The notes beneath the pieces are model-generated. The model did no database searches. It saw only the letters and a program-made list of their open reading frames with translations, and was not told the DNA's origin. Source: Fibrobacteria bacterium (lineage in GTDB: Bacteria; Fibrobacterota; Fibrobacteria; UBA11236). Taken from it: a DNA stretch of 60,384 nt. Position numbers and translations under genes: made by a program. The stretch spans positions 1 to 60,384 of the forward strand of contig JAYTSD010000021.1 of assembly GCA_043745805.1 (NCBI GenBank), in the 5' to 3' direction. Shown here piece by piece: positions 1-60,384 of this stretch. Position 1 is the stretch's first letter. Every line of letters begins with the position of its first letter.

Positions 1-122
1 TCATTGAAGCATTTATTCCTGAATCCAATGGAATGAATGCTCTCAAAGACTGACTTTAATACGTAAGGTCGCCGTGACCGGACTACACATGCGTTTAGAT
101 GGGGTAGATGAGGATCACGCGT

Positions 123-220
123 TTTCGTCGGTCATTTCGACAAGCTCAATGTCCGACGAAATGATTAAAACCGAGCTAGGTGTCCCCTGAGCGGAGCGCT
201 GCACTGAGCAAAGCCGAGGC
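123..220. repeat. Cluster of degenerate REP-like palindromic units
   Basis: Hairpin TTTCGTCGG(123-131)...CCGACGAAA(153-161) encloses TTCGACAAGCTCA. Downstream CCCTGAGCGGAGCG and CACTGAGCAAAGCCGAG resemble the opposite orientation of the same TTCGAC-NNN-GCTCA unit. Confidence 0.5.
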
Positions 221-384
221 TAGAGAAGACCTTTCCTCTTTATAAAGTAATTTGCAGGATAATATAGACTAAACTCTATATTTAATTTCCTAGCCATTTT
301 CCCTGTCATAATTACAAATTTTTTGCTTATATTAGAGCATTCAATGGAATGCTCAATTCCCTAACTTCCAACTCCGAGGTTTTT

Positions 385-1050
385 ATGATTAATAAAATCA
401 CCAAAGTTCTTTCAATAGCTGCTGTTCTAGTCGTATCCGTTTCAATGGCTCACATTAATACATTGAATATTAAAGGCGGAGAAACATTTACCCCTGGAGC
501 AAAACAAACTATCTCATGGGTCTTGGCGACTGCTCACGGTTCAAGTTTTTCAATTTCCTATTCAAAAGACGGTGGAACCACTTGGGCAAAGGTTGTCGAC
601 AATTTGCCACTAGTAGCGCAAGGAGCAACTGCTAGTTACTCTTGGACCATTCCAACTGAAACTACTACAAAAGGAATGATATGGGTAAACCATGTTACTT
701 CCACCCCTCCAAATTTAACCGGTGCAGACTACAACCTAAAATCCGGCGTTTTTACCGTTGGCCCCACCTCCTCCATCAATACCAACAACACAGAAATCAA
801 AAGCACTTTAGCTTACAACACTTCCACGCAAAGCATTGCCGTTGCTTACTCCTTAGTCAATAACGAGAATGTTACCCTCGAAGCCTTTGATGCCTCTGGT
901 AAATTATTAGTCACTTTGTTAAATCAAAATCAAAATGCAGGGGCTTATAATCAAACGATTTCCACTCAACAAATCGTCGCTAAAGGCCAAATCATTTTCA
1001 AATTAAAAGTGGGAAATGAAGTTTTAGCAGAAAAAAGTATTGCTCGCTAA
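385..1050 (+). CDS. Secreted protein, N-terminal beta-sandwich starting with His, plus T9SS-type C-terminal sorting domain
   Basis: GAGG upstream of ATG 385. Signal peptide ends SMA|H. GGETFTPG...YSKDGGTTW...SYSWTIP Ig-like pattern. Tail VTLEAFDASGKLLVTL...G.Y...IFKLKVG...K resembles T9SS CTDs. Confidence 0.8.
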   Translation: MINKITKVLSIAAVLVVSVSMAHINTLNIKGGETFTPGAKQTISWVLATAHGSSFSISYSKDGGTTWAKVVDNLPLVAQGATASYSWTIPTETTTKGMIWVNHVTSTPPNLTGADYNLKSGVFTVGPTSSINTNNTEIKSTLAYNTSTQSIAVAYSLVNNENVTLEAFDASGKLLVTLLNQNQNAGAYNQTISTQQIVAKGQIIFKLKVGNEVLAEKSIAR

Positions 1051-1071: not shown

Positions 1072-1102
1072 AAAGCCCAGCCTTAATAGGTTGGGCTTTT
1101 TT
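1072..1102. terminator. Bidirectional intrinsic terminator
   Basis: AAAGCCCAGCCT-taat-AGGTTGGGCTTT followed by a T-run, between convergent genes. Confidence 0.85.
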
Positions 1103-1114
1103 ATTCGTCCAATT

Positions 1115-1606
1115 TTATTTCAATTGCGTTTGAATCAATACATCCAATTCTTTTTCAGCCACAGCGGAATAACCATTCAAGGTTTTTAATAATTGCCCTT
1201 TAGCATCGAAAACGTAAAGCGCGGGAATACCTTCAAAGCCATAAATTTTTGACTGCGTATCTTTTTTATCATGTAAAACCAAATAAGTGATACCCATTTT
1301 TTTAGCGAAGGAAGCCACTTTATTCGCTGTGGTTTTATCTAAACTAATGCCCACTATTTGCAGACCTTTTTCGCCATATTTTTTTTGTAATGACACTAAT
1401 GTGGGAATAGTCTCTTTACAAGAGGCACACCATGTCGCCCAAAAATCTATGATCACCACTTTATTAGCTAACTCCGTTTGTGTATGCATTTTACCCGTTA
1501 TGTCGGGTAAACTAAAAGGCGGTAGCGATTTAATTTCGATGGCATAAAGATTTACACTCAATAAGCCTGCCACAAAAGTACTGGTGAAAATATTTGTAAA
1601 ACGCAT
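1115..1606 (-). CDS. TlpA-family thiol-disulfide oxidoreductase
   Basis: Signal peptide, DFWATWCASC active site, GIPALYVFDAKG cis-Pro region. Confidence 0.92.
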   Translation of the reverse strand: MRFTNIFTSTFVAGLLSVNLYAIEIKSLPPFSLPDITGKMHTQTELANKVVIIDFWATWCASCKETIPTLVSLQKKYGEKGLQIVGISLDKTTANKVASFAKKMGITYLVLHDKKDTQSKIYGFEGIPALYVFDAKGQLLKTLNGYSAVAEKELDVLIQTQLK

Positions 1607-1615
1607 AAATCTCCT

Positions 1616-2899
1616 TTATAAATCAAAGCCTAAGCCGAGCATAAAAGTACCTTCTTGATAGTACTCCCTTGCCGAAAAGAGTTGATAGTGAAAATAATTT
1701 TTGCCATTGCCCTCATCGCCCTTGGTATTGCGAATACCTTGATCATAACTCATATCAAAACGATCGGGTAACCAAGCATTGTCATGCCAACTCTCAGCCA
1801 AAGTAGTGGCAAATTTAACTCCTACTGTGAGAGAAGAAAATTTAGTGTAGCGAATATCAGCGGAGCGATAGAGTTCATCGCCGACATAAGGATCTTTGGC
1901 AAACCCTGTAGCGCTTTGAGCATAACCTCTCACGCGCATTCTAAAATATCTTTCCTCACCAAAATATTGATACCATTGTAATTCGGCATCATCGGCTACC
2001 ATAGCCCAGCTATCCATATAATGCCGCGCTTCTAAATGAATAGATCCCAAATGATCACCCCAACGATAGCCTTGAATAACTTGTCCTGCAATCGCTAAAG
2101 TCTTTTTTTCACGCGGAGTATTTTCTTCAATTACTTTTCCGGAATCGAGAATAATCGGATTGTAAGGATGACCTAAATATCCATTACTATATATGCCATT
2201 TGCGGTGATCGCCACCAAAGTTAAAGGAGTTAATAATTGTGATGCCGATAATGTTAAAGAGCGGATTTGCTTATGACCGCCTTGATCGGCAAAAGCGCCT
2301 TGCGGATGAAAATCATCAAAGAACCACGCTAAGGAAGCGCTGACGGTGGTATTACGTTCATTAAAATCATGAGCAATGGATAAAGTCGGAGAATAGGAGC
2401 GATAATCCGATTCATCACTAAAATAAAAACCCGCCGTATAGACTTGGCCATTATTGGAATACGTAAAACTTGGGTTTTCGGAATGACGCATTTCTTTTTG
2501 CGAAGCACCGGCAATGACATCAAAAGCAGAATCACTCCAAATGTCTTCGAAAGGCTTTCCATTCGCAGCGCGCTTTGAGGCGCCTGAGTTGGCATCCACA
2601 CCATGATCGCCAAGTTTGCCAATTTTATCTAGGCCTAATCGTCGCGATGCACCGGACACCAAATCCAATTCTTGGGACCATTGAAAACTCCAAGCATGAG
2701 ATATTTTTTTAATCCAGTCAAATGCTGGTGTATGATTCCAAACATCATTTTTATCCCAATAATACATGTATTTAAAATCGATGCGATCTTCGGATTCCTC
2801 AGCCTGTATTTTTTTAGGTAACATGGAAGCTATCATTAAAAAACTTAAAGCCATGGAGATCAAGCGAGAAATCTTACTCCGTGGTTTTAACATCCGCAA
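1616..2899 (-). CDS. DUF3570-like outer-membrane beta-barrel protein
   Basis: Signal peptide, DxxSGAS motifs, ESDY.S, NTT, GYLGHPY, Y.DSW, SADIR, C-terminal amphipathic strand (LGLGFDL). Context between DUF4266-like and TlpA genes. Start may be ATG 2893. Confidence 0.82.
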   Translation of the reverse strand: MRMLKPRSKISRLISMALSFLMIASMLPKKIQAEESEDRIDFKYMYYWDKNDVWNHTPAFDWIKKISHAWSFQWSQELDLVSGASRRLGLDKIGKLGDHGVDANSGASKRAANGKPFEDIWSDSAFDVIAGASQKEMRHSENPSFTYSNNGQVYTAGFYFSDESDYRSYSPTLSIAHDFNERNTTVSASLAWFFDDFHPQGAFADQGGHKQIRSLTLSASQLLTPLTLVAITANGIYSNGYLGHPYNPIILDSGKVIEENTPREKKTLAIAGQVIQGYRWGDHLGSIHLEARHYMDSWAMVADDAELQWYQYFGEERYFRMRVRGYAQSATGFAKDPYVGDELYRSADIRYTKFSSLTVGVKFATTLAESWHDNAWLPDRFDMSYDQGIRNTKGDEGNGKNYFHYQLFSAREYYQEGTFMLGLGFDL

Positions 2900-3126
2900 C
2901 CACCACCCGAACCAGCACTTCCACCCGCTGCGCCTTCACGGCGAGGTAGATTATGACCTTGCATACCGCTTCCTAAAGGATCGGGAATGCGTTGCATAAT
3001 GGGATCGCTTAAAAATTCACGGTCCTTTTGATGTACATTTGCGCAACCGGAAAAAACAAAATTCAAACTCAGTAAAACCATTAATAAAAGGAGAGAAGAA
3101 AGTAAAAGCGAAAGCATACTTTTCAT
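2887..3126 (-). CDS. DUF4266-like small lipoprotein
   Basis: Lipobox FSGC, RE.LSDPIM, REGAAGG and terminal GGGCGC. Confidence 0.88.
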   Translation of the reverse strand: MKSMLSLLLSSLLLLMVLLSLNFVFSGCANVHQKDREFLSDPIMQRIPDPLGSGMQGHNLPRREGAAGGSAGSGGGCGC

Positions 3127-3824
3127 ATTGCAGGCTCCTCCCCCTTAAAGCCTTTAATTTTTTTGGAAGGAGCAGGCCATGCCCAAGCACCACCCGTGGG
3201 ATGACAGGCTACCGCAGAACAGGTTTCCATTTTGGGATTGAAGGTTGCCGCAGTGTCATTAAAGCGTTTAAGATCCGTATAGCGTGGATCAAATTTTACA
3301 TCTACAGTTCCATTCAAATGCGCCATGCTGGTAATCCACTCCTGCATTAAAGTCGATCTCGAATTATACGGGACAGGTATGGGATGATGTTCAATTAAGG
3401 TGTCGACATGATGGAAAACATAAGCTCCTTGCAGAATCGAATTACGAAATTGGGTATTGTCTCCAAAATCATAAGTCGAATAGGAGTTGTTAACTTGGTT
3501 TACCGTGTCCATAAAAATACTATCCATGATTTTCACATCACGGGATTGCAAAGAATTATAATGGCAATCAAGGCAAGTGATTTTGCCATTACCGGGTTTC
3601 ATTTTATCGGTATGTAATAAATGATATTGATGATTTACGCCACCCACCGGATAAGTGTGACAACTTGCACAATTAGCCGTTTCTTGCGTTTCTGTTGTTC
3701 GCGTGGCTAAAGCATTTTCTTCAGGAATCCAAGAGTTACATGCCAAGAAAAATAGGCCTAAACTCAAAGGAAAAAAATAGCGCAGATTTGATTTCGAATA
3801 AAAAGATTTATTTAAAAAAAACAT
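3123..3824 (-). CDS. Triheme c-type cytochrome lipoprotein (CxxCH x2, CxxxxCH x1)
   Basis: Lipobox FLAC. Motifs CASCH, CLDCH, CSAVACH. HxxH (HQYH) and AHLNG as candidate distal ligands, as in Geobacter-type CxxxxCH/CxxCH proteins. Confidence 0.8.
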   Translation of the reverse strand: MFFLNKSFYSKSNLRYFFPLSLGLFFLACNSWIPEENALATRTTETQETANCASCHTYPVGGVNHQYHLLHTDKMKPGNGKITCLDCHYNSLQSRDVKIMDSIFMDTVNQVNNSYSTYDFGDNTQFRNSILQGAYVFHHVDTLIEHHPIPVPYNSRSTLMQEWITSMAHLNGTVDVKFDPRYTDLKRFNDTAATFNPKMETCSAVACHPTGGAWAWPAPSKKIKGFKGEEPAI

Positions 3825-10108: not shown

Positions 10109-11911
10109 TCATTTGATGGCAGGGATCTGGAAAGAAGGTTTGCGTAAATCTTCCAGCTCCGAAACTTCGCGCGCTTTGATTTGCACGGTATCAATCCCTC
10201 GCCGATAACCTTCTTGCTCATGCCAAGGTAAAAGCGTTCCCGCATTCCATAGCCCATCCCCATTTTTATCCTGAAAATATTCCAAATGATAGGCGCCAAC
10301 AGGAATACTATCTATAAGCATTTCTTCGCGTGGGATAATTTTACGAATCTCGGTAGGACCAAAATTTTGTGTCAGCAATAAAGTCCAGCCGAAGAGTACC
10401 TTGTCTAATTTAAGTTTCAACAAACCCCATTGCGAAGATTTAATAGGCTTAAAGCTTTCGAGAGGAGCAATATCCATCTTTGTCGAACTATCCATTTGCT
10501 TTGTGAGTTTTTTCCAACCGAAATTTAAGGTCTCGTCTTTCTCTTCGGGGAAAATATATTTCACAGTAAATTCATGTGTGTTTAAAGGTTGTATTTCAAA
10601 TGGATGAGTTACGGTATCGATTTTAAGCGAAAGGTTGGTTTTGATGGAAGTCAAAACAGTAGGAGTTAACGTTTTGGAAGAATAAATAGAAAAAGGATGA
10701 TTGGGGAAAAAATTGTCGCTGGGTAATTTTGCTCTCATGCCTAAATAATTGGCACCACCCAAAAAGAAAAATCGAATCGGCGTAGAGTCAATTTTAGCAC
10801 TTACTCTAAATTTTGCCCAATGCGACGTATCTGCTAGGTTACCGTAATTATCGCGCATACCCTGTAAGCGCAAAACATATTCACTATCACAAACCAAGCC
10901 GCTGGTCGATAATTCGATTTCACCGGTTTGTGGATTGCGATTTACACCCACAATATTCAAGGTATCTTTAAGATTATGGGCTATTAATCTATAAGCTGAT
11001 TTCAACAAAGACTCTTGTGGGTGAGGTTCTCGATTAAATTTTACACGGATAATTCCTTGTGCTTTTTTCTCCGCTACACTTTCACTCAACCACTCGGCGG
11101 CCTGTAATTTCAAGCTTGCCGTATCATAAGCGGCCAAAGTCAATTGTAAAACATCACCCTTATTTTTTTTCACCTCACGGTGAAAATTTCCGATGGCCAA
11201 ATTTTCCGAACCTAAATTTGGGAATTGATTTTGATTCAAATCTTGAAAGGCTATCACAGCGTAACTTCCAGGTTTTATACCCGAAAGATGAAAGCGACCG
11301 GCAGAGTCCGTAGCGCAAATGTACATAGGACGTTCTTTATGAATTTGTGGTAAGGTATCGGGCGATACCAAACTATCATGGTGCATTTGCAAATACCCTA
11401 AGGAAAATCGATCCGACGAATTAGGATACATCGCCACCAAGGTATTGGTAGGTGCGCCTTTAATTCCCAATCCACCCACCCATCCGGTAATTTCTCCCGA
11501 ATCAATTTCTGGGCCGGTAGAAAAAATTATTTGATAATTATCTTTTAATCGCAAGCCATTGAGATCCGCAATATTATTAAGGCTTAAGCTATAAGTTGTT
11601 TTGGGTTCCAGCTGCGCTTCGGACGTCAATTCTAGGCGATTGCCTAAGGCCTTAACATGAATTTTTTTGGCTAACGGTGGCGATAGCAATACTTGATTTT
11701 TTTCCAAATGGGCATTAACCCATTCCGAAAATTCGAATTGTGCATTTAAATCGCGAGAAAGATTTACTGCATTGGGGGCAGGGTAAACTGCCACGACACG
11801 AGGCAAAGTAGTGTCCACGGGTCCACCTGGAGGTGCTTCCATATGGGCACAGCGCCAAAATCCCCAAGCTAGGCCAAGGAGTGTAGCCCTATAAACGGGG
11901 CGAAACTTCAT
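10109..11911 (-). CDS. Ig-like (Big_5) domain lipoprotein
   Basis: CA....P.GGPVDTT.P.V, FEFSEWV, FSTG..IDSG, two D.N.[DN] Ca-type motifs. Confidence 0.82.
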   Translation of the reverse strand: MKFRPVYRATLLGLAWGFWRCAHMEAPPGGPVDTTLPRVVAVYPAPNAVNLSRDLNAQFEFSEWVNAHLEKNQVLLSPPLAKKIHVKALGNRLELTSEAQLEPKTTYSLSLNNIADLNGLRLKDNYQIIFSTGPEIDSGEITGWVGGLGIKGAPTNTLVAMYPNSSDRFSLGYLQMHHDSLVSPDTLPQIHKERPMYICATDSAGRFHLSGIKPGSYAVIAFQDLNQNQFPNLGSENLAIGNFHREVKKNKGDVLQLTLAAYDTASLKLQAAEWLSESVAEKKAQGIIRVKFNREPHPQESLLKSAYRLIAHNLKDTLNIVGVNRNPQTGEIELSTSGLVCDSEYVLRLQGMRDNYGNLADTSHWAKFRVSAKIDSTPIRFFFLGGANYLGMRAKLPSDNFFPNHPFSIYSSKTLTPTVLTSIKTNLSLKIDTVTHPFEIQPLNTHEFTVKYIFPEEKDETLNFGWKKLTKQMDSSTKMDIAPLESFKPIKSSQWGLLKLKLDKVLFGWTLLLTQNFGPTEIRKIIPREEMLIDSIPVGAYHLEYFQDKNGDGLWNAGTLLPWHEQEGYRRGIDTVQIKAREVSELEDLRKPSFQIPAIK

Positions 11912-13209
11912 TCAATTAATTTTCCTATGCGTGACCATCGAATTTTACCTGGAATAGTTAACCAGCTAAACGGATTGGTAAATGAAAATGCATTGTCCTC
12001 ATTCTCGAAGGAGAAATACACAATAAAAGCTTTGGCTTTTACATAATCTTGCGAAAGCAATCCCCAGTATCGGCCATCTGAACTATTGTCACGATTATCA
12101 CCCATCATGAAGTAACATTTTTTTTGAATACGGTATTGCTTTACTTTTTGACCGTCGATGACCAATGAAGGAATGATGCGATATTTTTTTCCAAGTTGCG
12201 CGCCTTGGCCACGAATGTTTTGTCCAATTAATTCCAAATAATGGCCCATAAAATATTCACCCATTTCCACGCGTTTTTGACCTGGCTGAGTTTGCACTCC
12301 AAAGGCAGGTAAATCGTTAGTGCGAATAAATCCCGTGCGCGCAATATTTTGAATAGCCGAGAAAGGAATATTTTCAGCATGAATATAAGGCACACCACCC
12401 GGCCCCATCACTTGCTCCCAGCGATAATTCAATAAAGCAAACACAGCATAATGGGAACGAATACGCGTATCCCCATTGAGATAAGGTAAAACATAATTAT
12501 TGTCGATGACCGAATCTTTTTGCATGTCCAATTGTAATTCCACTTTGCTATCGGGATTTTCTTGATAGGCTATAGACTTAATCCACACGGCTTCGCGTAA
12601 ACTTAAAGTGTCAAAATCGTAAGTTTCATCGGGACTAGGAAGACGAAAGTTTAAAGTGTCGCGCTGGGGATCAAATTCACGAAAATCGATAAATTTCCCA
12701 TGCGGAGGTAGAGGTGAATCTTTGCCATCAATGAATAGTTTTTTACCCGAAACAGTTAAGGTTTGTCCGCTTTTAGCCACACAACGTTTGATAAAGTCTT
12801 TGGGCATGTACCATACCATTCGATTCTCACCCTCAGCAGGATGCCTATCCCAATACAAATTACCGAAGAGGAATAGGTTCGCCACAAATTGATAACGTTC
12901 CTTATCCCCTTGCGGATATTCGGGATCACCTGGATATTTAAAAATCAAAACATCGCCAGGATGCGGCTCCGTCAGAGCAGGTAATTTTTTGTGAGAAAAA
13001 GGAATGGGTGCGCCATAAATAAATTTTAAGCCTAAAAGAAAATCGCCTATGAGTAAGGAGTCTTCCATAGACGCGGAAGGAATTTTAAATGCTTGTATTA
13101 CAAATTGTATGACAATCAATGCCATAAGTATAGGGATGAGTATTTCCTTGGTGAAAACTCTCCCCGCTTTGCGAATATCGGGATATTTTTTTTCTGAATC
13201 TTTCACCAT
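11908..13209 (-). CDS. lepB: Signal peptidase I
   Basis: AFKIPSASME (Ser), DFIKR (Lys), MMGDNRDNSSDGRYWG. Confidence 0.95.
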   Translation of the reverse strand: MVKDSEKKYPDIRKAGRVFTKEILIPILMALIVIQFVIQAFKIPSASMEDSLLIGDFLLGLKFIYGAPIPFSHKKLPALTEPHPGDVLIFKYPGDPEYPQGDKERYQFVANLFLFGNLYWDRHPAEGENRMVWYMPKDFIKRCVAKSGQTLTVSGKKLFIDGKDSPLPPHGKFIDFREFDPQRDTLNFRLPSPDETYDFDTLSLREAVWIKSIAYQENPDSKVELQLDMQKDSVIDNNYVLPYLNGDTRIRSHYAVFALLNYRWEQVMGPGGVPYIHAENIPFSAIQNIARTGFIRTNDLPAFGVQTQPGQKRVEMGEYFMGHYLELIGQNIRGQGAQLGKKYRIIPSLVIDGQKVKQYRIQKKCYFMMGDNRDNSSDGRYWGLLSQDYVKAKAFIVYFSFENEDNAFSFTNPFSWLTIPGKIRWSRIGKLIE

Positions 13210-58800: not shown

Positions 58801-60384
58801 CGCTGATGGAGCCTCTTATGACACGGAAGATTTAGATCGCTCCGGTAATTTGGATTCTCGTAACCGTTATATGCGTTATGCTATGCCATTGGATAGTGCT
58901 TGCTCAGCCAAATTTTATTGCGAGCAATTACAAAATGGCTGGCGCAAATATCTCATTCCACTTTATGGGGGCGGAAAAAAAATTGATCCCACCAATATTG
59001 AAAGTGAAGAAACTGTTTTAAAGAATGTTAAAATTATGCGTTTGTGGATGGGAAAATTGCCCAAGCGCGTCGCCAAGGCGGAACTGTTATTAGCACGCAT
59101 TAATATTGTAGGCAATGCTTGGGAAGAAGGTCGTAGAAATACCAGTTATGAAATCAATGCCGACCGCTTTACCAATGGTGATTTACCCGATAGTGCAGCC
59201 CTTTATGTCCCCACAGCTACGCCTGATAGCAATGCTTTAAAAGTAGAAGTGATTAATAAACAAGAAGATCGAAATTATATCCCCTCTCCCAATACCATCA
59301 TTGAAAAAGACACTCGCTCCAATGAACCGATTGCCGAAAAGGCCCTTGTATTGAAATACGAAAATCTGCATGAAGGCGAAGTGGTGCATGCCACTCGTTT
59401 ATTAGGCAATGATCCCAAAGACTTAACTTTATATAGCCGTATTCGTATGGAAATTCATCCCAATCTTGTTACCGCGGCTAGCGGCCAAGGCAAGGTAACT
59501 TTTGGGTTACGATTAGGAAAGGATTTAGGTAACCGTGAATCCAAAGATTATTATGAAATACGTTTGCCCATGGATGGAGTAGCTGCCCCAGGAAGCGATG
59601 AAAAAGTATGGCTAAAAAATTCTTTCAATGTAAGCCTCGATCAGCTTACTAATTTAAAAAATGAGGCGGCGTATCGCGCCTATACCGGCAGGGAAGTTTC
59701 TCATCATGCTTATCATGAAGGACGTGGCGATACCTCTATCACCCTTTCGGTGGTAGGTAACCCTACTTTATCGCGCATCGACTGGATGCGTTTAGTTGTT
59801 TATGTTGACTCCGGCGTAAGCAAACAAAGTGGTGAAATATGGGTGGATGATTTACGCCTCGAAGGCGTAGACAAATCGATTGGAAGTAGTATGCGTACTA
59901 GTTTGCAATTAGACTTTGCGGATTTTATAAATTTATCGGGCAATCTAGTTTATCGGAATGGAGGTTTTACCACCATGAGTGAAACCAAAGCCACGCCAGC
60001 CAATTCAGCTTCTAAGGTGGATTACAATGGTACCGCTAGTTTATATGCCAATAAATTTTTTCCGGATGTATGGGGTTTGAATATACCGCTTTCCATACAA
60101 TATTCGGGTAGCATTAATCGACCTTTTACTAAACCCACTTCCGATTTGAATTTGCATGGCACTGACTTACAAGACTTTGTAAATGATTTATGGCATGATA
60201 ATCTGCGGACCCGAAACACTCTTGCGGATAGCCTTGCGGATATTGAAAATCAACGTTCCCGGTATTATCAAACTACTCAATTCGATAAACGATTTACCAC
60301 CAGTTATAAAAAGGATCATCGCTCCGGCAATTTTTGGATACAGTCTTTTTTAGAAAGGCCCGATCTCAGTTATACCTATTCTAC
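55814..60384 (+). CDS. sprA: T9SS outer-membrane translocon SprA/Sov, 3'-truncated (about 1520 codons visible; not in ORF track)
   Basis: Read by hand in frame 2: MGKSFRF signal peptide, YKGEGAELEDEIIQEIEAGNTSL, GIFGLK...RFG, IASQE, LLGTRFEY, DNFE, SWGGVMR, EDLDRSGNLD, GEIWVDDLRL. Frame still open at the last bases; spot-checked, not fully translated. Confidence 0.9.
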   Translation, partial: MGKSFRFRFKLWLWPLLLCVGAAFGVYQERTDYLPVPEQTHPLDNLLPQKGIGSSGGYLKINSEFLKRQHNVNFDKRSVEIVSYLKVGEAGTESSKKDSITLSQAYYQELNSYSMDMNDLALRRLWLNQFVGKEDAGQATTGGLFDLTLPVTVPDWMRRIGVEAPRLRINGSYKLVVEGKSITGNGSPINSGWFPSLHMDQQPAISVKGSIGRLINVEINSEEGFGTNLKDQLKISYKGEGAELEDEIIQEIEAGNTSLTLTGTSLTGYTETHKGIFGLKMRMRFGGLEVTTIASQEGGSQERQTLGTGTEARTFTIEDKAIDLHKHFFLKLSDRKDYADQIEGVGTPKYISAGQGRREVEVFQLLTSNEDVKDSHDSATAYLYDSSGNQTGITEYGRWKSLKVNDEFVYDEALRMLSIFQGQRSTSYAVRWTNDFLMAAGKGRDKKSLILIHSRNGAGDANLEKLLWMNVYNIGKVAKQDRDNFQLEVRDNDSRESNPGDTINFTRTLGLQKVESNKLDFENEQVFNFDQGLLILPCKSKVAKDGDLGNCFTPMRRVNKDTKIYTESIDDISNLNSTHKFLITGKQRKSSFDVRENSQSVNGSQCLDITPGTEKLTINGSTVLTKDADYEVLYETGQITLISPRAKDPNAKIDISYECTPPFQIQDKVLLGTRFEYKLDNISEESILGATVLYKSQNTTSTQPELGREPFNQLLWGFNARLSGSPAWMTKLVNKIPFIATEAKSKANFEFEIAQSRYNPNTKGTAFLDNFESSQNSSGSMPLNYYTWFQSSPPGNTSEDALIFDDSLDYRHRGRFIWHSNLKEQYSRIYGSTGNTLTNSREQTLLKLSLLANDNLQGHSWGGVMRGFSPSSYNQSRKRSLEVVVNGREGNLYVDMGQISEDLSINGEAPNGHMDSELKPGEIKNTRDAGLDNVTDAEGEVAKNWQCLPNCFYSLKDNSNTGGDAAQDNFDANKVVTGESDPATAEMDGTEGNNKAADGASYDTEDLDRSGNLDSRNRYMRYAMPLDSACSAKFYCEQLQNGWRKYLIPLYGGGKKIDPTNIESEETVLKNVKIMRLWMGKLPKRVAKAELLLARINIVGNAWEEGRRNTSYEINADRFTNGDLPDSAALYVPTATPDSNALKVEVINKQEDRNYIPSPNTIIEKDTRSNEPIAEKALVLKYENLHEGEVVHATRLLGNDPKDLTLYSRIRMEIHPNLVTAASGQGKVTFGLRLGKDLGNRESKDYYEIRLPMDGVAAPGSDEKVWLKNSFNVSLDQLTNLKNEAAYRAYTGREVSHHAYHEGRGDTSITLSVVGNPTLSRIDWMRLVVYVDSGVSKQSGEIWVDDLRLEGVDKSIGSSMRTSLQLDFADFINLSGNLVYRNGGFTTMSETKATPANSASKVDYNGTASLYANKFFPDVWGLNIPLSIQYSGSINRPFTKPTSDLNLHGTDLQDFVNDLWHDNLRTRNTLADSLADIENQRSRYYQTTQFDKRFTTSYKKDHRSGNFWIQSFLERPDLSYTYS

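Follow-up and report, generated by a model that had tools for sequence, protein, structure and literature searches.

An N-terminal-histidine protein family of Fibrobacterota encoded beside a flavin/haem/thiol redox module: candidate histidine-brace copper proteins

Gene, predicted mature N-terminus and domains

The beginning of contig JAYTSD010000021.1 from a Fibrobacteria bacterium (assembly GCA_043745805.1; the whole stretch of 60,384 nucleotides was analyzed and is called the window here) holds the gene of a small exported protein whose predicted mature form starts with histidine, followed on the opposite strand by four genes of a flavin/haem/thiol redox module. The N-terminal-His gene (P0001) lies at 385..1050 on the + strand, stop codon included, and encodes 221 amino acids, as read from the open reading frame list and its translation. 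The open reading frame containing it spans 349..1050 (+). A GAGG motif 7 nt upstream of ATG 385 marks this codon as the likely start, and a canonical signal peptide follows from there, MINKITKVLSIAAVLVVSVSMA|HINTL. We rejected ATG 349 as the start; it would put 12 extra residues ahead of a normal signal peptide and has no Shine–Dalgarno-like motif. The signal peptide comprises 22 amino acids (385..450, +), with n-, h- and c-regions read from the sequence, and cleavage at SMA|H is predicted by the (−3,−1) rule. The mature protein should hence begin with His, exposing its free amino group.

A preceding sequence-only reading of the same DNA had proposed this cleavage directly before His and had pointed to two further His and one Tyr, and all four of its codons proved exact in the translation. 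They are, on the + strand, His1 of the mature protein (precursor His23, 451..453), His29 in TAHG (precursor His51, 535..537), His81 in NHV (precursor His103, 691..693) and Tyr94 in ADY (precursor Tyr116, 730..732). DSSP assignment of the model described below places His29 in the B–C loop; His81 is found at the end of strand F and Tyr94 at the start of strand G. In an alignment of 22 sequences, His1 (22/22) and Tyr94 are invariant.

The AlphaFold2 model of the mature protein (22-row alignment, pLDDT 86.8) consists of a 7–8-strand sandwich (residues 1–103), a low-confidence linker (108–113) and a second, 7-strand sandwich (119–197), which agrees with the proposed architecture of a ~105-aa beta-sandwich followed only by a sorting domain. 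A fold search with this two-domain model returned antibody light chains only, an artefact of the tandem Ig-like domains, and the N-domain was refolded alone. Its separate model (51-row alignment) reached a pLDDT of 89.0 and a pTM of 0.80, with strands at 2–5, 18–25, 32–38, 46–53, 60–66, 72–82, 95–97 and 101–103 and an ordered N-terminus (mean pLDDT 92 for residues 1–10).

By model and profile search, the N-domain (451..771, +; ~105 aa) is a fibronectin type III (FN3)/Ig-like sandwich of the Kre9_KNH or ‘PNGGE + Asp-box’ repeat superfamily. Searching 1.84 billion representative proteins with its profile yielded 6560 proteins at E≤1e-3, of which the best 150 were all giant (821–6941 aa) with 8–55 tandem copies each. 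The parent domain is thus a common surface repeat of the form ‘SPNGGE..ITW..IDYSxDGGxTW’. In agreement with this, Pfam searches with the 22 relatives found Kre9_KNH in 6/22 (best E 8.6e-5) and Reelin_subrepeat-B in 8/22, and the only match among solved structures was the Asp-box (SxDxGxTW) of sialidases. These repeats share the fold and are true homologs of the N-domain, but they are internal, occur in tandem and lack the His/His/Gln/Tyr set. Generic members of the repeat family start with Gln or Thr instead of His, and in none of 18 giant repeat proteins inspected did the first repeat start with His. How the source organism ordinarily uses the parent domain is shown by a 781-aa protein of the same genome (L003:565-2910, contig C20): its one generic His-less copy, matched at E 1.5e-6, is preceded by a beta-helix-like N-terminal region and followed by a GH17-like region.

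For the N-domain model, fold comparison with VIA-align gave a top Z of 9.1, with FN3 modules overall at Z 7.6–9.1, the CbhA FN3 modules among them at 8.6–8.8, adnectin at 7.9 and antibody V domains at 7.4–7.9. Two copper proteins scored in the same range: the lytic polysaccharide monooxygenase (LPMO) 5msz of auxiliary activity family AA15 (Z 7.8, rmsd 2.4, 101 aligned residues; model 1..106 on chain 1..195) and LaX325 (6ibh; Z 7.6, rmsd 3.3, 99 aligned residues; 1..108 on 1..139). Both alignments begin at residue 1 of each chain. The AA10 LPMO 5ftz appeared at Foldseek rank 49; CopC, YcnI and PmoF1 were not among the best 50 fold-search matches listed, which does not exclude likeness. Structural resemblance to histidine-brace proteins was found for AA15 and X325, at scores that ordinary FN3 domains reach as well.

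Profile databases, too, gave no assignment to a known auxiliary activity or LPMO, CopC or X325 family; the sequence-only reading had found no auxiliary activity family to place the protein in. No Pfam or NCBIfam family scored above its cut-off for the N-terminal-His protein, and no LPMO model matched it at E≤1; LPMO_10 matched 2/22 relatives at E 0.09 only. CopC (PF04234), YcnI (DUF1775) and X325 (DUF6595) gave no Pfam match at E≤1 for the window protein or at E≤0.1 for its 22 relatives. Similarity scores of the window protein in a protein atlas did not exceed 0.80 and serve as leads only.

The C-terminal 7-strand domain (805..1047, +) was assigned with hhalign as a diverged type-A sorting domain of the type IX secretion system (T9SS). 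Aligned to the C-terminal domain of the genome’s second-best Por_Secre_tail protein, it reached a probability of 96% (E 4.6e-9); under curated cut-offs it scored 11.2 bits vs 27 for PF18962 (E 0.48) and 13.7 vs 23 for TIGR04183 (E 0.046). The earlier assignment as T9SS-type cargo hence stands by profile–profile comparison, but not at the cut-offs of Pfam and NCBIfam. FlgD_ig matched 6/22 relatives. The host encodes a T9SS, with sprA at 59015-60139 (+) running off the end of the window (SprA_N, E 1.1e-31), and its genome contains 42 Por_Secre_tail matches at E≤1e-3. Judged by its sequence, the N-terminal-His protein is probably exported by Sec and sorted by the T9SS. In g3 genomes, small exported proteins of 122–137 aa are encoded beside the TlpA-like gene of the redox module (L036:16490-16903(−), L037:7064-7432(+), L039:9651-10052(+), L041:7940-8347(+)). 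In these, the signal peptide is followed by a short Ala/Gly-rich stretch and by the family’s C-terminal domain only; they could be what is left of His1 genes, or T9SS cargo in their own right.

Distribution of the family and its conserved residues

Word-indexed searches of 5.8 billion proteins identified 22 small proteins of the N-terminal-His type, the window protein included. Its own genome encodes a paralogue of 34% identity. Among 296 species genomes of the phylum, 24 carry the family, and two more match via generic repeats only. The full family of 51 sequences is, among those found, confined to Fibrobacterota genomes and metagenome proteins. A scan for the pattern L[SNL][IVP]KGGE[TM]F hit 11 loci, of which four, all from Fibrobacterota (Chitinispirillaceae included), were of the His1 type; the other seven (WOR-3, TA06, Blastocatellia and an uncultured bacterium) encode generic repeat proteins. 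As it requires an exact pattern, the scan says little on absence outside Fibrobacterota. A first contig scan with a pattern of the C-terminal domain found no relative. In the literature on the histidine brace, the T9SS, Fibrobacter and DUF3570/DUF4266, subscription journals not covered, we found no description of the family.

The source genome encodes subunit I of a haem-copper oxidase (COX1) and gave no match to an AA10 LPMO. Across the phylum, COX1 was present in 22/24 His1-bearing genomes vs 66/296 overall; in the largest taxonomic family, f6, it occurred in 2/151 genomes and the N-terminal-His family in 0/151. This co-occurrence is consistent with a copper function and does not prove it; kinship among the genomes inflates all cross-genome counts given here.

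Conservation within the family is concentrated on few residues. In all 49 sequences with an intact N-terminus, a +1 His directly follows the predicted cleavage site, in an AxA-type context with Ala at −1 in 47/49 and at −3 in 42/49, in agreement with the proposed cleavage before His. His1 is found in 50/51 aligned sequences, the sole exception being cut by the end of its locus, and His29 in 51/51; for both, conservation had been suggested as a check. The Tyr94 column holds Tyr in 46/51 and Trp in 4/51, and Cys80 is kept in 45/51. The third His of the sequence-only reading, in NHV, fared differently: column 81 holds Gln in 46/51, Leu in three and Glu in one, and His in the window copy only. The window copy further has W78, N80 and H81 where the family has Arg, Cys and Gln, and it is without the disulfide.

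These residues are rare in the parent repeat. In 1991 generic repeat copies from 150 proteins, the family’s conserved residues occur at the same columns in 0–2%, with His at the His1 and His29 columns in 1% and 2%, respectively. The subfamily-specific positions 1, 2, 29, 80, 81 and 94 map in the model to the N-terminus, the B–C loop or the flanks of the F–G loop. In FN3 and antibody V domains, the N-terminus adjoins the pole formed by the B–C and F–G loops, known as the complementarity-determining or monobody face. This shared location favours the view that the conserved residues make up one functional site. The family differs from its parent repeat by a single N-terminal domain copy, a new conserved pole and a usually disulfide-braced, longer F–G loop. 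The 5–8 residues after the +1 His vary in length and sequence across the family. Longer, fused forms, including fusions to a carbohydrate-binding module (CBM), were not found, which is weak evidence.

A maximum-likelihood tree of the 51 rows separated a 5-row clade (families f13 and f8, genus g6) from a 46-row clade. In the latter, genes linked to DUF3570 are scattered over several well-supported paralogue subclades. In g3 genomes (L036 9194-12414 in G253; L037 9402-11174 and 14227-14907 in G250), three or four diverged paralogue types occur together, among them types with a long F–G loop and Tyr, with a short F–G loop and Tyr, and with Trp in place of Tyr. Their coexistence suggests a division of labour within the family.

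The neighbouring redox module

New in this analysis is the linkage of the N-terminal-His family to a module around DUF3570. In the window, four module genes lie downstream of the N-terminal-His gene and convergent with it, all on the − strand. The nearest, at 1115..1606, encodes a TlpA-like thioredoxin-fold protein with a WCASC motif (AhpC-TSA, Redoxin and Thioredoxin_8, E 1e-15 to 1e-22). It is followed at 1616..2899 by a DUF3570 protein with two SGAS flavinylation-type motifs (PF12094, E 1.8e-36) and at 2887..3126 by a small DUF4266 lipoprotein ending in GGGCGC (PF14086, E 7.2e-12). The last gene, at 3123..3824, codes for a lipoprotein in which CxxCH occurs twice and Cx4CH once; these motifs make it a probable tri-haem cytochrome c, with only weak Pfam cytochrome matches. 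Between the two convergent genes, the N-terminal-His gene and the TlpA-like gene, a terminator-like palindromic hairpin with a 12-pair stem and a subsequent T run is located at 1072..1099.

The presumed redox motifs of the module are strictly kept among homologs. Two [ST]GA[ST] motifs are present in 8/8 DUF3570 homologs of the cluster, the C-terminal GGGCGC in 8/8 DUF4266 homologs, all three haem motifs in 12/12 cytochrome lipoprotein homologs and the thioredoxin-like motif in 6/6. The C-terminus of DUF3570 follows the pattern G-x-x-F-x-F/L, which we take to resemble an outer-membrane beta-signal.

We counted adjacency by hand from the match tables of the family and of DUF3570. Of 41 family matches, which include three whose His was not inspected (G260:C55, G247:C551, G269:C16), 23 share a contig with a DUF3570 match at a distance of up to 5 kb, and 25 do so at up to 10 kb; of the two added at 5–10 kb, one belongs to genome G254. 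Linkage within 5 kb was seen in 13 genomes. The full module is present in the window and at seven further annotated loci (G245, G249, G250, G251, G252, G253, G263), which come from three genera of the family and from a second taxonomic family. Each of the seven further loci carries one to three His1 genes on the strand opposite to the module. Some of these genes point away from the cytochrome gene across gaps of 87–176 bp, and others, at three of the annotated loci, are inserted between the TlpA-like gene and DUF3570. The flanks outside the module differ from locus to locus.

ApbE is encoded in the source genome on another contig (C46), and none was seen in the annotated module flanks. Méheust et al. 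(PMC8238504) showed that ApbE flavinylates DUF3570 at two [S/T]GA[S/T] sites. They assigned ApbE, DUF3570, DUF4266 and a thioredoxin-like protein to an extracytosolic system for electron transfer whose function is unknown. The window genes correspond to this DsbD-type flavinylation cluster by the two [S/T]GA[S/T] sites of DUF3570, the C-terminal CXC of DUF4266 and the thioredoxin-like protein. They differ from it in that ApbE is located elsewhere in the genome and in that a tri-haem lipoprotein and one to three N-terminal-His proteins are added, neither of which we met in the portion of that work available to us. JDVT-CTERM partner proteins are mentioned in a preprint (10.1101/2023.06.07.544157). 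No plasmid match was obtained with DUF3570. When DUF3570 (residues 34–426, 9-row alignment) and the N-domain (108 residues) were modelled as a complex, the score was 0.00 vs a mark of 0.32, which counts neither way.

A second DUF3570 set of the source genome (L061, contig C18, 3241-13252) encodes a 764-aa protein, a TlpA-like protein, a DUF4266 protein ending in GGGCGCSK and DUF3570, and five genes for Nuo/Mrp-like membrane subunits follow directly downstream. The set contains neither a cytochrome lipoprotein nor a His1 gene. In three g3 genomes, a lipoprotein of ~630 aa with CarboxypepD_reg, DUF2341 and Laminin_G_3 domains adjoins the module (L036:4463-6355, L037:14927-16828, L038:5879-7765). 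In a single genome, a glucose/sorbosone dehydrogenase (GSDH) homolog is encoded beside the cytochrome lipoprotein (L041:12063-13916); fungal sugar dehydrogenases with pyrroloquinoline quinone are LPMO reductants. Two distant family members from f13, which are without the usual C-terminal domain (L044:7979-9751, L045:4927-8216), have peroxide-related neighbours: one adjoins genes for a glutathione peroxidase and a MarR regulator, the other a KatG-type catalase-peroxidase gene, with a nitroreductase gene in the vicinity.

Copper handling and alternative functions

A His that is fixed exactly at +1 beside a variable stretch points to the free amino terminus being part of the site, as in the histidine brace. 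We consider it probable, at roughly 0.6, that the N-terminal-His protein is a histidine-brace-type copper protein. The free amino group and the imidazole of His1 could form, together with His29, a mononuclear copper site of this type, with Gln81 (His in the window copy) and Tyr94 in its outer sphere. The redox-module neighbourhood argues for copper handling or surface redox chemistry rather than for a classical LPMO. The flavin/haem/thiol module might reduce Cu(II) to Cu(I) in the surface copper centre, and the protein might then serve to capture copper reductively at the outer membrane and pass it on, in organisms that make a haem-copper oxidase. To our knowledge, all known bacterial histidine-brace proteins of ~100 aa, plus the surface-anchored Bim1, are copper carriers. 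The CGC tail of DUF4266, which the TlpA-like protein would keep reduced, recalls thiol chaperones of Cu(I). With these two points, and since the carriers of the family make a copper enzyme, we favour copper capture. The whole chain of copper site, reduction by the module and capture role nevertheless remains tentative, and we would give it clearly less than even odds. A bolder version is unlikely to hold as a whole: a first histidine-brace copper centre genetically wired to its own conduit across the outer membrane, from thiol to flavin barrel to tri-haem lipoprotein, and acting as a T9SS-displayed extracellular copper oxidoreductase.

Several observations weigh against this chain. Genes of copper homeostasis (CopA/B/D, CusF or similar) were not seen in the annotated loci, and up to four paralogues per genome are unusual for a part in metal uptake. 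The DUF3570-linked His1 genes always lie on the strand opposite to the module, which excludes co-transcription. Moreover, 16/41 family matches are more than 10 kb away from DUF3570, including the paralogue in the source genome and the whole 5-row basal clade, and DUF3570 modules are widespread without the N-terminal-His family, as in the second module of the same genome. The genomes are kin, and the co-occurrence with COX1 and DUF3570 may reflect lineage effects. The window copy itself sits apart on a long branch (1.56) and has lost the disulfide, Arg and Gln. Finally, the LPMO and X325 fold scores tie with hundreds of ordinary FN3/Ig domains, which makes the fold alone uninformative on function.

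Known histidine-brace proteins offer close but incomplete parallels. In a 2023 review (PMC10952591), a free amino terminus beside an imidazole is named as the hallmark of the brace, and the small proteins CopC, PmoF1, YcnI and X325/Bim1 are linked to copper transport. X325/Bim1 (DUF6595), which the same text describes as inactive on polysaccharides and implicated in copper acquisition, resembles the window protein in being a small, secreted, surface-tethered beta-sandwich whose mature chain starts with His and holds a second one. X325/Bim1 proteins, however, are fungal, ~150 aa long and anchored by glycosylphosphatidylinositol, whereas the window protein is bacterial and combines a 105-aa domain with a T9SS domain; we found no sequence relation. 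In X325, an Asp occupies the fourth coordination site, and no such conserved acid is seen in the window family; the Ctr transporter context of X325/Bim1 is replaced here by a flavin/haem module. With CopC, PmoF1 and YcnI, which are covered by the same review, the window protein shares a ~100-aa Ig-like sandwich, an N-terminal His that arises from signal-peptide cleavage, bacterial origin and genes clustered with functional partners. It has no Pfam match to CopC or DUF1775, though, and its ligand spacing is His1 + His29. Furthermore, those proteins are periplasmic with CopD or YcnJ as partners, in contrast to the predicted T9SS surface export and the redox partners of the window protein. LPMOs of AA9, AA10 and AA15 have in common with it His1, a second His, an axial Tyr or other aromatic residue, an outer-sphere Gln and an FN3/Ig-like core, but the window domain is half their size, has no family match and is without substrate-binding loops, CBMs and neighbours in glycan degradation.

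The same copper site could also be catalytic, with the module keeping the centre reduced for turnover of O2 or H2O2 as an oxidase, peroxidase or peroxygenase with an extracellular substrate, or in making or removing peroxide, instead of handing copper inward. The His/His/Gln/Tyr set resembles the His-Gln-Tyr second sphere that the abstracts of PMC10472438 and PMC11137697 describe for catalytic AA9 and some AA10 LPMOs, and no conserved Asp or Glu is found among the subfamily-specific positions for the fourth coordination site, unlike the Asp of X325. A chain of several cofactors would suit a continuous electron supply, and expanded paralogues with Tyr or Trp variants as well as the two distant members beside KatG and a nitroreductase or beside glutathione peroxidase and MarR would fit catalysis. 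These peroxide-related neighbours, however, occur at two loci only, both in the clade without DUF3570 linkage. Known LPMOs are about twice as large as the domain, which has no evident extended binding face, no conserved substrate-related gene was seen nearby in the annotated loci, and the limits on the predicted copper site apply equally. We thus regard a catalytic role as unlikely. Less probable by far is a minimal, free-standing LPMO that cleaves cellulose, chitin or another glycan and to which the neighbourhood is irrelevant. It would account for the N-terminal His, the second His and the axial-type Tyr on a beta-sandwich, for secretion by the T9SS as with many glycan-degrading enzymes of the phylum group, and for the alignment of the AA15 LPMO across the entire domain (Z 7.8). 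Yet LPMO families gave no match at E≤1, apart from LPMO_10 in the two relatives noted above, and the 105-aa domain has no loops that would build a substrate face. The phylum’s largest family, f6, lacks the protein throughout and mostly lacks haem-copper oxidase. The polysaccharide connection of the sequence-only reading, LPMO-like as it was, thereby loses ground: the annotated loci show no conserved glycoside hydrolase or other carbohydrate-active enzyme as neighbour, and no CBM or other fusion was found, the latter being weak evidence. In sum, what that reading had observed was confirmed and its interpretation is partly supported.

The conserved pole may also have no relation to copper. The His/His/Tyr set might bind haem b in the style of NEAT, HmuY, DOMON or cellobiose dehydrogenase cytochrome domains, or Zn, Fe or Ni, or it might dock the Ig-like domain to the outer-membrane protein of the module. 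Several surface proteins bind haem through a His/Tyr or His/His pair of a beta-sandwich. Giant adhesin-like proteins carry the parent domain as a generic surface repeat (6560 matches), the fold search yields generic Ig/FN3 matches only, and a partner in a haem or flavin relay would explain the neighbourhood equally well. A haem or docking residue, however, need not stand exactly at +1, yet the +1 His is found in 49/49 sequences despite the variable 5–8 residues that follow, and generic members of the repeat family start with Gln or Thr. A free amino terminus next to an imidazole, moreover, is the brace hallmark given in PMC10952591. We therefore consider a non-copper function doubtful, if less so than catalysis, and retain the histidine-brace copper site as the preferred explanation.

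Few kinds of histidine brace are on record, namely LPMOs, the CuB site of particulate methane and ammonia monooxygenases (pMMO/AMO), X325/Bim1, CopC, PmoF1 and YcnI, and each new kind changed ideas on copper biology. If correct, the copper assignment would add a kind derived from a surface repeat that is very common, and this in a phylum known to degrade glycans. The bolder oxidoreductase version would also fill the slot ‘electron transfer / unknown’ that the 2023 review holds for histidine-brace proteins and would provide a terminal partner for the widespread DUF3570 system. The gene linkage in itself offers a concrete hypothesis on the function of DUF3570, DUF4266 and TlpA-like proteins and on histidine-brace electron transfer or copper capture at the bacterial outer membrane. 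With its 105-aa domain, the protein is small enough to be easily tested by expression, electron paramagnetic resonance and crystallography.

Two further features of the window were seen outside the genes discussed. Upstream of the N-terminal-His gene, at 60-240, the contig starts with a G+C-richer stretch that has no open reading frame and no Rfam match; Rfam gave nothing in 1-1200 except a chance match to rliH, and nothing across the whole window. At 11911-13209 (−), the window encodes a long signal peptidase I homolog of 433 aa.

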